Source: a phage. Taken from it: a stretch of DNA of 64,000 nucleotides. The notes beneath the pieces were generated by a model. The model saw only the letters and a list, made by a program, of their open reading frames with translations. It was not told the origin of the DNA and made no database searches. The DNA lies in the sequence record PZ583738.1; one strand, written 5' to 3'. Position numbers and translations under genes: made by a program. Below are positions 2,373 to 63,352 of the stretch, piece after piece (position 1 is the stretch's first letter; each line of letters starts with the position of its first letter).

Positions 2373-2632
2373 CATTCGCAGAAGAACTACGTCAAATCGC
2401 AAAAGAATCCCAAGATAAAGTTGCAAATGACTTTATTGCTATATTTCGCAAAGTGGCTATTGCCGCCGCCGAGAATGGCAAAGATGCTGTTAATATGGCA
2501 GTTTCTGAAAAAGAGTATGAAGAAGGAAACCGCGCGAAGATATCTGATTTTCTGCGAGCAGAAAAATTTACATCATTTACCTGGAATTATGATTGGCAAG
2601 AAGCCAAGCCAATGCTGTATGTAAAATTCTGA
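2369..2632 (+). CDS. hypothetical protein
   Basis: 87 aa ORF, start overlaps preceding stop (ATGA coupling). Confidence 0.45.
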   Translation: MTFAEELRQIAKESQDKVANDFIAIFRKVAIAAAENGKDAVNMAVSEKEYEEGNRAKISDFLRAEKFTSFTWNYDWQEAKPMLYVKF

Positions 2633-60870: not shown

Positions 60871-61164
60871 ATGGACCTTATTCGAGGACTTTCATTAAGT
60901 CTAATAATCCTGGGCTGTTTAGGCCCAAATCTGTCCTCTGCAACAGAGGGGAAGTTTACCCAATATGCAGATAGTGCGATGAAGATTTATTCGCAATTCA
61001 AAGAACCAAGCGTGCACCAATCCGAACAGTTCTGGGCGTTTATCAAGACTGAATGGAACAACAAAAGCCAATGCGAAACTGAAATTACCTGCAAAAGCGA
61101 TGGTAAAGCTGCGGCGAGAGAGTACGCTAAATTAATGAAGGTAAAATTGGAAGATGAAATTTGA
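60871..61164 (+). CDS. rI: lysis inhibition regulator RI (antiholin)
   Basis: 97 aa (same as T4 RI); signal-anchor N-terminus; QSEQFWAFIKTEW and C-terminal AAAREYAKLMKVKLEDE resemble recalled T4 RI; adjacent to tk. Confidence 0.75.
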   Translation: MDLIRGLSLSLIILGCLGPNLSSATEGKFTQYADSAMKIYSQFKEPSVHQSEQFWAFIKTEWNNKSQCETEITCKSDGKAAAREYAKLMKVKLEDEI

Positions 61165-61537
61165 TGATTTCGTAACGGGTCGTGGGTCTGAGGTGGATTC
61201 ATATATTGGGTGGTTGTTAGTCTCTTTGGCTTATTTTAAGTCCGCCCATCTTGAAACCAAAAGTTACGCCCGCCATAAAGCTTATGATTTCTACTTCACA
61301 GAAATCCAAGGTCCACTCGACCAGTTCAGTGAGCAATGGTTAGGTTACAGCGGGAAACAATACAAAGCTGCATTACCGTCCGCCTCGGACTTGCCGAAAG
61401 ATACAATTTTGTTTTTAGATGAAATGATTAAAAGCTCGGAAAGAGTCTATAAAGTTGTACCCAAGGCTATTCAATCGACTCTGGACGATATCGTTGGAGT
61501 TTTCTTTCAGACTAAGTATCTGTTAACACTAGAGTAA
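61154..61537 (+). CDS. hypothetical protein (rI.1 position)
   Basis: 127 aa, followed by intrinsic terminator. Confidence 0.5.
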   Translation: MKFDDFVTGRGSEVDSYIGWLLVSLAYFKSAHLETKSYARHKAYDFYFTEIQGPLDQFSEQWLGYSGKQYKAALPSASDLPKDTILFLDEMIKSSERVYKVVPKAIQSTLDDIVGVFFQTKYLLTLE

Positions 61538-61544
61538 TTCAAAA

Positions 61545-61570
61545 GGTCTGCCTTCGGGTGGACCTTTTTT
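61545..61570 (+). terminator. intrinsic terminator after ORF 61154-61537
   Basis: ggtctgccttcgggtggacc hairpin followed by tttttt. Confidence 0.6.
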
Positions 61571-61625
61571 CATTTAGAGGTTTACAACACCATAAAAAGG
61601 GTGTACTATTATCCCATCAACTACT
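61570..61625 (+). promoter_or_regulatory. early promoter / stem-loop cassette
   Basis: GTTTAC ... gtgtactattatcccatcaactactgagg. Confidence 0.4.
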
Positions 61626-61637
61626 GAGGAGAACACA

Positions 61638-61841
61638 ATGAGAATTAAAAATATCAAGATTGATGCAGTTAATACTGGTGATGAGGTTGTTATCTATCTT
61701 AATGATTATGCAATCTTTATGGACAGTGCCACTGATGAAGAAGTGGTTGAACTCTTACAGAAAGCTCCATTTGAACTGTGTGAAGAAGATGCTACCCATC
61801 TTTCATCAGCAATTTTCTCATTATCATATGTGGTGGAATAA
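61638..61841 (+). CDS. hypothetical small acidic protein
   Basis: 67 aa after early promoter/stem-loop cassette. Confidence 0.5.
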   Translation: MRIKNIKIDAVNTGDEVVIYLNDYAIFMDSATDEEVVELLQKAPFELCEEDATHLSSAIFSLSYVVE

Positions 61842-62035
61842 TGATTACTTTAGAACAAGCAAAGAGAATCTCTGCATTAGTTGCAGCAATTCGTGAAGCA
61901 GATGATGAAATGGCAGCTTATGCTTGGGCAGCCCCATCTGTATCTGGCGGTAAAGAATTAGAAGCAAAAGTTGGCAATGCTCTGGAAGCATTGGATATGT
62001 TCCTTGACGAAATTATTGATTACAGGACTGCATAA
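61841..62035 (+). CDS. small helical protein
   Basis: 64 aa, ATGA-coupled. Confidence 0.45.
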   Translation: MITLEQAKRISALVAAIREADDEMAAYAWAAPSVSGGKELEAKVGNALEALDMFLDEIIDYRTA

Positions 62036-62217
62036 TGTTAACTACTGAACAGATTGAGAAAATTATCAAACTCGCTTGGCACATTGAAAATGCATCCAAT
62101 GACCTGGCTGTTGAATATTGTGAAGGTTATTCATATTCTGGAATAGAACAGTGTAAGCGTGATTTGAATAGTTCTAAAGAAGAATTAATTGCTTATCTGA
62201 ATGGGTTGAAAGAATAA
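62035..62217 (+). CDS. small helical protein
   Basis: 60 aa, ATGA-coupled; ...KEELIAYLNGLKE. Confidence 0.45.
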   Translation: MLTTEQIEKIIKLAWHIENASNDLAVEYCEGYSYSGIEQCKRDLNSSKEELIAYLNGLKE

Positions 62218-62474
62218 TGGCTGTTGGATTTGCAAAAGATGGTGCTGAACAGTTAGAGATGGAAGCGGTTGTACAGGCCGCTATCACCCATGCGAGAGCA
62301 CAGGTTGCAGTTGAAAGGGAGTCTGCTGAATTCTGTTTTGACTGCGACGAAAAAATTCCTGAAGCGCGGAGACAAGCGATTAAAGGTGTGATATATTGTG
62401 TTGGTTGTCAATCAATGCATGATGAAATTTTTAAACGTGAACCAAGAAATTGTTGGCACAGGAGCATGAGATGA
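62217..62474 (+). CDS. DksA/TraR-family C4 zinc-finger protein
   Basis: 85 aa; CFDCDEKIPEARRQAIKGVIYCVGCQ matches the TraR/DksA C-x2-C-x17-C-x2-C zinc finger. Confidence 0.65.
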   Translation: MAVGFAKDGAEQLEMEAVVQAAITHARAQVAVERESAEFCFDCDEKIPEARRQAIKGVIYCVGCQSMHDEIFKREPRNCWHRSMR

Positions 62475-62565
62475 TTTATTACTTAGAACCCTGGGCTTGG
62501 TCAACAATGATTATAGGTCCTATTTTAATCGGTTTATTCTTTTCGTGGTTAGTGAGGAAAATGTA

Positions 62566-62781
62566 ATGTTATATGATCCAAGCGGCAATTCTGAAAATGG
62601 TGTGATTGTTCTGGAGCCTGAGCATCCAGTTGGTGACGTATACCGCCCAGTTGAAGTATGCGAATGTAATTTTGTTAAAGGTAATACCGGTGGGATTTCC
62701 ATTGAGCAAGATGATGATGTTATTTACCTGGATGCAAGCCAAGTAGAAGCACTTTATAGTATTTTAAAACATAACCGTTGA
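62566..62781 (+). CDS. hypothetical protein
   Basis: Track ORF starts at TTG; ATG at 62566 has RBS GAGGAAAA. Confidence 0.45.
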   Translation: MLYDPSGNSENGVIVLEPEHPVGDVYRPVEVCECNFVKGNTGGISIEQDDDVIYLDASQVEALYSILKHNR

Positions 62782-62791
62782 GGAACAGAAA

Positions 62792-63352
62792 ATGATTATT
62801 GAAACAACTGAATTGTTTGGCGAACTGACCGCTGAAGTAGTTAATAATGCAATTGAGCTTTGTCAAGAAGACGATAAAATCGTACTGACTATCCAAGATA
62901 TTAAACCACTTTATGATTTAAAGGTTTTGGATAAAGACGAATATCTTAGTGGTAGTTTTAGTGGTGTATTTGATATTAACGATGATGTATGTGCTCGCAT
63001 TTATAAGCACGATGGTGGGTTTAATATTGAAACAGATGAAAAATGTCTGAGCATTAGCGATTCTGATAAATTCTTTGATTGTATTTTCAAACTGTTCCAG
63101 GAAGAATGTAAGCCAGAAGTTGAATGGAAAGTCCCAGGTCAAGATGCAGTGATTCGCTCTAGTGAAACCTTTGACGGTGACGAAGAGGAATTGAATTATA
63201 ATACTGAACTGACTGTTGTTCAGCATGATGGTCGTGACCAACTATGTATTACCCAAGTACACGATGGTTTTAATGAAGTGGTATTTACTAAGGACGAGCT
63301 AAAAGTTTTAGTCTCTTATCTGAACTCTGTTATCCCAACTATGAACTCTTAA
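62792..63352 (+). CDS. hypothetical acidic protein
   Basis: 186 aa ORF with RBS. Confidence 0.5.
   Translation: MIIETTELFGELTAEVVNNAIELCQEDDKIVLTIQDIKPLYDLKVLDKDEYLSGSFSGVFDINDDVCARIYKHDGGFNIETDEKCLSISDSDKFFDCIFKLFQEECKPEVEWKVPGQDAVIRSSETFDGDEEELNYNTELTVVQHDGRDQLCITQVHDGFNEVVFTKDELKVLVSYLNSVIPTMNS

Follow-up and report, generated by a model that had tools for sequence, protein, structure and literature searches.

The window, a stretch of 64,000 nucleotides of phage DNA (sequence record PZ583738.1), carries near its end a real protein-coding gene under selection, whose product is a C4 zinc-finger protein of the TraR/DksA family and, judged by its sequence, belongs to the YbiI branch of that family and not to TraR proper. 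The best-supported reading of its function, which we hold with moderate confidence, is TraR-like binding of the protein to the secondary channel of the host RNA polymerase (RNAP), by which it would alter initiation early in infection. Phage homologs of TraR are a documented route to the reprogramming of host transcription without triggering the stringent response, which makes a copy in a virulent T4-like phage a reasonable candidate for a takeover factor. As stated, the finding adds little, since the family, its presence in relatives of T4 and the likely target have all been reported. On the other hand, the phage clade and bacterial YbiI both lack the essential DxxDxA motif of TraR and yet keep a tip and a tail of their own almost invariant, and this non-canonical tip and conserved tail make a modest case for asking whether the YbiI branch is a second functional class of secondary-channel factor.

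The open reading frame list and the sequence bear out the 85-residue frame reported in an earlier reading made from the sequence alone; it runs from an ATG start through 85 codons to a TGA stop. The gene and the two knuckles of its finger are placed as follows:

62217..62474, plus strand: YbiI-type TraR/DksA-family C4 zinc-finger coding sequence (open reading frame list, Pfam PF01258, PHROG 54, dN/dS 0.085)
62334..62345, plus strand: first zinc knuckle, C40-F-D-C43, invariant in 57 sequences
62397..62408, plus strand: second zinc knuckle, C61-V-G-C64, invariant in 57 sequences

The protein, MAVGFAKDGAEQLEMEAVVQAAITHARAQVAVERESAEFCFDCDEKIPEARRQAIKGVIYCVGCQSMHDEIFKREPRNCWHRSMR, has a mass of 9.7 kDa and is built, by prediction, of a single helix and a zinc ribbon. 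Its cysteines C40, C43, C61 and C64 give the spacing C-x2-C-x17-C-x2-C and its residues 47-55 the IPEARRQAI core, both as the sequence-only reading had described them, and together the pattern and the core are far above chance expectation. Membership of the TraR/DksA C4 superfamily, which had also been proposed, was confirmed by a match to PF01258 (zf-dskA_traR; 36.3 bits against a gathering cutoff of 24.9, E 5.8e-9), by a match to PHROG 54, 'DksA-like zinc-finger protein' (E 2e-20), and by a search of PDB sequences, in which the only significant matches were YbiI (2KGO, E 1.2e-9) and RNAP-bound TraR (5W1S/6N57, E about 1e-4). Two minus-strand open reading frames that overlap the gene (62253..62411 and 62174..62287) were set aside as lacking support.

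Within the superfamily, the protein departs from the 'typical' TraR/DksA member for which it had been taken. Its best NCBIfam match is the YbiI-type model NF008243 (76.4 bits over residues 1-71, below the 96-bit equivalog cutoff), while TIGR02419, the model for the phage/conjugal plasmid C4 zinc finger of the TraR family, gave 52.9 bits, below its cutoff of 59.7, and the DksA model NF033459 gave 13.2 bits against a cutoff of 105; DxxDxA, moreover, is absent. A full HMMER search of 1.84 billion representatives returned 404 clusters, the best 150 of which were sorted. Among these 150, TraR-type members are about 68-76 residues long, start with M-x-DxxDxA and have their first cysteine at position 35-38, whereas YbiI-type members are about 84-91 residues long, start with MAxG[FW]xxDGAVQ, have their first cysteine at 39-41 and usually end in ..NRRGSKDSQLR. 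The window protein has the MAxG[FW]..D-G-A..Q motif, a first cysteine within 39-41 and a basic tail ending in [LM][RK], which by sequence places it on the YbiI-type branch as delineated in this analysis, its score lying under the curated YbiI equivalog cutoff. A search with TraR as the query found only close F-type TraR proteins (67-100% identity), and representatives were used instead to obtain a diverse profile. When the YbiI-type and TraR-type profiles were compared with hhalign, they aligned with 99.75% probability over residues 12-73 (TraR 9-70), the tip falling outside the alignment.

Over its last 4 kb, the window shares 89-95% identity with T4-like myoviruses of the VR7/SP18/RZ group (Straboviridae, Tevenvirinae, Gaprivervirus). 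The gene is part of the early region that extends from tk to nrdC, with homologs of T4 mobD.3 and mobD.1 on either side. The dN/dS value of 0.085 was obtained against the VR7 ortholog; in the comparison with jumbo phage ph0011, synonymous change has reached saturation (pS 0.89) and yet the encoded protein sequence is maintained. By tblastn, about 776 phage records contain relatives, some of them jumbo phages with genomes of roughly 350 kb. Records of the VR7/SP18/RZ group label the gene as a hypothetical protein (VR7ORF106c, 'similar to JS98 ORF095c'), Escherichia phage UPEC01 has a 100% identical protein annotated as 'TraR family zinc finger protein', and the protein of Citrobacter phage Moon (P0007) is 76% identical. 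A Pfam zinc-finger match was listed for ORF130c of Aeromonas phage 44RR in a 2006 comparison of T4-like genomes (PMC1524935). Genes of this kind are thus known from relatives of T4, and their likely target has been reported before.

In T4 itself, a tblastn search of 52-62 kb found no counterpart or remnant at the mobD.3/mobD.1 locus, which holds the unrelated mobD.2a and mobD.2 instead. Some T-even relatives have a 55-residue chimeric open reading frame (phrog_25948; P0048, P0050, P0058, P0060 and P0063), exemplified by positions 2459..2626 of the Mosigvirus Escherichia phage DCP548 (L004), to be compared with window positions 62387..62474 and 62566..62620. Over its first 27 or so codons this frame is similar to the start of the DUF7189 gene described below (MLYD...), and its last 88 nt differ at one position from the end of the zinc-finger gene (VIYCVGCQSMHDEIFKREPRNCWHRSMR). 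Of the zinc-finger protein, the second CxxC knuckle and the conserved tail alone have survived, so that this product cannot form a C4 finger; it represents either the remains of a decayed gene or a new small protein in which the tail was retained. As T4 and Mosigvirus are without an intact copy, the gene must be dispensable for a T-even lifestyle. Other T4-like phages have YbiI-type genes at other loci: in Klebsiella phage Squirrel_ER27 (L008, 1501..1761) the gene adjoins DNA primase and encodes the bacterial-type tail GYNRRGSKDSQLR, and in Aeromonas phage 31.2 (L007, 1501..1755) it encodes a third tail variant, RVARPKTMR. All three proteins, the one in the window included, start with MAVGF.

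The surroundings of the gene suggest when it is expressed. It sits in a run of small genes behind a promoter-like site:

61541..61568, plus strand: intrinsic-terminator-like hairpin found by scan, with a 12-bp stem, a TTCG loop and a T run, ending the upstream unit
61580..61609, plus strand: promoter-like site GTTTACA-N17-TACTAT of the T4 early type found by scan, the likely start of the operon
61638..61841, plus strand: mobD.5-like gene (open reading frame, family match, annotation of relatives)
61841..62035, plus strand: mobD.4-like gene, DUF7438 (same evidence)
62035..62217, plus strand: mobD.3-like gene, DUF7438 (same evidence)
62471..62566, plus strand: gene for a 31-residue hydrophobic peptide, MIYYLEPWAWSTMIIGPILIGLFFSWLVRKM, phrog_12165 (E 7e-21; sequence and PHROG)
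62566..62781, plus strand: 71-residue DUF7189 gene of the same operon, its start overlapping the stop of the 31-residue gene (TAATG)

The mobD.5-, mobD.4- and mobD.3-like genes each overlap the next by one base, and the peptide gene overlaps the zinc-finger stop in ATGA, with its AGGAG ribosome-binding site inside codons R82-S83. Because six small genes overlap in this way by one or four bases from start to stop, we regard 61638-62781 as one translationally coupled unit. The mobD.4-like (61841..62035) and mobD.3-like (62035..62217) genes are tandem paralogs (DUF7438, phrog_653). VR7 and DCP548 also have the peptide gene, whereas none follows the homolog in ph0011. On the upstream flank (61154..61537) lies a homolog of rI.-1/mobD.7 (DUF5856), whose family is labelled 'starvation-inducible transcriptional regulator', and on the downstream flank (62792..63352) lies MobD.1, labelled 'y05I-like putative transcription factor' (PF24449/PF24448), both labels being annotation only.

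A GAGGAG ribosome-binding site follows the promoter-like site. The arrangement of hairpin and then promoter-like site (61541..61609 in the window, between rI.-1 and mobD.5 in T4) occurs at the equivalent position in RZ, VR7, T4 and DCP548. Across the five phages aligned, GTTTAC and the ribosome-binding site do not vary; TACTAT is shared by four of them, T4 included, and has diverged in DCP548. The GTTTACA and TACTAT hexamers fit the consensus published for T4 early promoters. The promoter-like site and its conservation thus argue for probable early expression of the zinc-finger gene, in agreement with this part of the sequence-only reading.

The case for a target in RNAP comes from the fold and from the surface by which TraR docks. 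Four segments of the protein matter here:

62217..62252, plus strand: N-terminal tip MAVGFAKDGAEQ, codons 1-12, near-invariant, in place of the TraR DxxDxA
62232..62303, plus strand: predicted single long N-terminal helix, residues 6-29 (AlphaFold2, pLDDT about 80; compare TraR-N 2-27)
62355..62372, plus strand: I47-P48-E49-A50-R51-R52, counterpart by conservation of TraR I44-P45-E46-A47-R48-R49
62430..62471, plus strand: basic C-terminal tail FKREPRNCWHRSMR, residues 72-85, specific to the phage clade (top-residue frequency 0.93)

The AlphaFold2 model superposes on RNAP-bound TraR at 2.8-3.0 A over 62-63 positions. This was the best fold match, DksA in its RNAP complex being a weak one (7KHI_M, E 0.63), and a TraR-like predicted fold agrees with the TraR/DksA reading. 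That reading had named the absence of an N-terminal coiled coil or an acidic tip, together with a lack of RNAP binding, as grounds for its rejection. No coiled coil is predicted, but on this point the check was mis-specified, since TraR too has none. In complex with RNAP, the N-terminal helix of TraR (2-27) runs down the secondary channel with S2 at 4.3 A from the catalytic Mg2+, and its C-terminal helix (58-73) contacts beta lobe-Si1 (PMC6970531). P45, E46, R48 and R49 belong to the globular domain and mediate its docking on the beta' rim helices and beta'Si3 (PMC6970531, PMC9239242). In 57 sequences, I47, P48, R51 and R52 of the window protein never vary, and E49 is kept in at least 90%. At the other end of the protein, hhalign reaches residue 73 (TraR 70), while the modelled C-terminal helix covers only residues 62-68; beyond it comes a tail modelled with low confidence, in which residues 80-83 form a short helix.

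The most conserved segments of the phage clade are the two ends of the protein, not the zinc finger. The mean top-residue frequency, taken over 41 phage-clade sequences with identities as low as 58%, is 0.97 for residues 1-12 and 0.93 for residues 72-85 (FKRxPRNCWHRSMR), against 0.58-0.71 for the segments between the two ends. Against ph0011, codons 1-12 show eight synonymous and no nonsynonymous changes, and the bacterial YbiI clade has MAxG[FW]AKDGAVQ in common with the phage tip. At the N-terminus of the window protein, DxxDxA (D3, D6 and A8 of TraR) is absent and MAVGFAKDGAEQ stands there. Profile-profile alignment was tried for the register of the tip against the TraR motif, and it ends at residue 12, with an ambiguity of one residue. 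The hhalign register sets D3, D6 and A8 of TraR opposite A6, G9 and E11 (residues 1-11 being unaligned), and a shift of one residue in a loop sets them opposite F5, D8 and A10; the first aspartate is lost in both registers, and the second aspartate and the alanine are preserved only in the shifted one.

In TraR and lambda Orf73, DxxDxA is needed for transcription regulation and not for RNAP binding (PMC9239242). The D3N or D6N change in Orf73 greatly reduces inhibition of rrnB P1 and nearly abolishes activity, and the equivalent aspartates of DksA are likewise necessary for function, not for binding. X. bovienii Gp34, which is without D3, is weaker yet active. Since the canonical motif is replaced in the window protein, the transcriptional outcome may be weaker than that of TraR or qualitatively different.

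The tail core reads PRNCWHRSMR in the window protein and ..NRRGSKDSQLR in the bacterial YbiI clade, and the intermediate tail NRKVWHRSMR of P0138 links the clade-specific RNCWHRSMR to the YbiI tail. The 3' end of the gene overlaps the ribosome-binding site and the start codon of the next gene, and invariance of the tail could be a by-product of this overlap. This was ruled out by ph0011, which keeps PRNCWHRSMR through other codons (AGC to TCT for serine, AGA to CGT for arginine) and without an overlapping downstream open reading frame; selection therefore acts on the protein sequence of the tail. A histidine in the N-terminal helix, H25 (62289..62291), accompanies the WHRSM-type tail (C79-W80-H81, 62451..62459) in 42 of 42 cases and the YbiI-type tail in none of 23. 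Such co-occurrence may reflect a contact between helix and tail or a second metal site, and is confounded by shared ancestry.

Homology, fold and the conserved docking surface underlie the reading in which the window protein acts on RNAP as TraR does, together with five tested phage homologs (lambda Orf73, P2 Orf82, VHML Orf8, VP882 Orf61 and X. bovienii Gp34, all small phage proteins of the same Pfam family) and a note that YbiI at high expression rescues a dksA mutant, reported as 'data not shown' (PMC2613031). Binding to the secondary channel is likely on this basis. The mechanism would follow that of TraR, with predicted docking on the secondary channel of host RNAP and the 24-residue N-terminal helix pointing down the channel toward the active site; an effect on rRNA promoters would be expected by analogy. 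The tested phage homologs, whose genes are expressed in early or regulatory regions, bind to RNAP and need no ppGpp to inhibit rRNA promoters, and lambda Orf73 increases burst size, so that reprogramming of host transcription by the window protein is a reasonable inference from Orf73 and the others. Several observations weigh against so close a parallel: DxxDxA is missing, and Orf73 is nearly inactive with either aspartate changed to asparagine; the scores fall short of the curated cutoff in the TraR subfamily model and in the YbiI equivalog model alike; the predicted C-terminal helix spans 62-68 only, against 58-73 in TraR, and gives way to an unrelated conserved tail; and neither T4 nor Mosigvirus has an intact copy.

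With the catalytic-site motif missing, two other readings deserve weight. The protein could enter the secondary channel as a plug or competitor, excluding DksA/ppGpp, GreA or GreB or obstructing the active site, with no tuning of the open complex, and for this the missing first aspartate, the three extra N-terminal residues and the invariant aromatic F5 can be invoked. We consider this unlikely, even though a conserved docking surface with a different tip is what it calls for, the tip aspartates of DksA, TraR and Orf73 serve function and not binding, and the tip is the protein's most conserved segment; a longer tip, furthermore, must sit differently, because S2 of TraR is already so close to the catalytic Mg2+. 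The reported complementation of dksA by YbiI at high level suggests DksA-like rather than anti-DksA activity, and the register is ambiguous enough that D8-G-A10 may stand in for D6-x-A8. It is similarly improbable that the YbiI branch, the phage clade included, has a target other than RNAP and that its invariant termini are peptide motifs for a host or phage partner, for instance a factor of stress or stationary phase or the product of another gene in the phage operon. Some C4 proteins of the superfamily do act unlike DksA or TraR, the tail is conserved at the protein level without a TraR counterpart, and VP882 TraR acts in complex with a partner protein, QisA. Yet the most conserved internal residues are those with which TraR contacts RNAP, RNAP-bound TraR is the best fold match, and no conserved partner was found in the neighbourhoods of two bacterial YbiI-type genes, both of which stand alone with unrelated downstream proteins (278 and 292 residues).

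If the gene had no significant role, being a mere passenger or in decay within a hyperplastic region, this could account for the absence at the T4 locus and the half-finger chimera in Mosigvirus, and the region is rich in small accessory open reading frames and holds a homing endonuclease gene in T4. Against this reading, which we regard as highly improbable, stand the low dN/dS, termini that are invariant across phages only about 60% identical and the roughly 776 phage records, jumbo phages included. Finally, a more specific proposal, which we offer tentatively and with some doubt, is that YbiI-type proteins form a distinct class of secondary-channel ligand, with TraR-like docking, a longer MAVGF..D-G-A tip, the tail as a second contact and another output. 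The tail may fold back on H25, and the output may be, for example, a block of DksA/Gre or of catalysis, or the recruitment of a partner. If this were true, T4-like and jumbo phages would have borrowed a host stationary-phase factor for takeover.

The annotated DksA/TraR genes of T4-like phages (Moon, 44RR ORF130c and UPEC01) belong to the same family and show no substantive difference. DksA shares the C4 zinc-finger domain family and differs in build, being a protein of 151 residues with a two-helix coiled coil tipped by DxxDxA and a need for ppGpp, whereas the window protein has 85 residues and a single helix. With F-plasmid TraR (5W1S, 6N57) it has in common, in the AlphaFold2 model, a single long N-terminal helix without a coiled coil, as well as the residues that dock on the rim helices and beta'Si3 (P48, E49, R51 and R52). 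It differs in having no DxxDxA, an N-terminus about 2-3 residues longer with an invariant phenylalanine, a variable position, Q53, where TraR has K50, and a shorter predicted C-terminal helix followed by an extra 14-residue tail that makes it 12 residues longer.

By sequence, the closest solved structure is that of E. coli YbiI (PDB 2KGO; NF008243/PRK11019), matched at E 1.2e-9 over residues 1-69. The two proteins are alike in the N-terminal MAxG[FW]AxDxA..Q, the C4 spacing, the IP(E/Q)ARR core, a length of 85 against 88 residues and a conserved basic tail ending in [LM]R. They differ in the tail itself (PRNCWHRSMR in the window protein, GYNRRGSKDSQLR in YbiI) and in H25, found throughout the phage clade and in no sequence with a YbiI-type tail; YbiI, in addition, is a sigma-S-dependent chromosomal gene, and the window gene a probable phage early gene. 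The five tested phage homologs belong to temperate phages and are of the TraR type, their DxxDxA being complete or nearly so (lambda Orf73 starts with MADIIDSA); unlike them, the window gene is YbiI-type and resides in a virulent T4-like phage.
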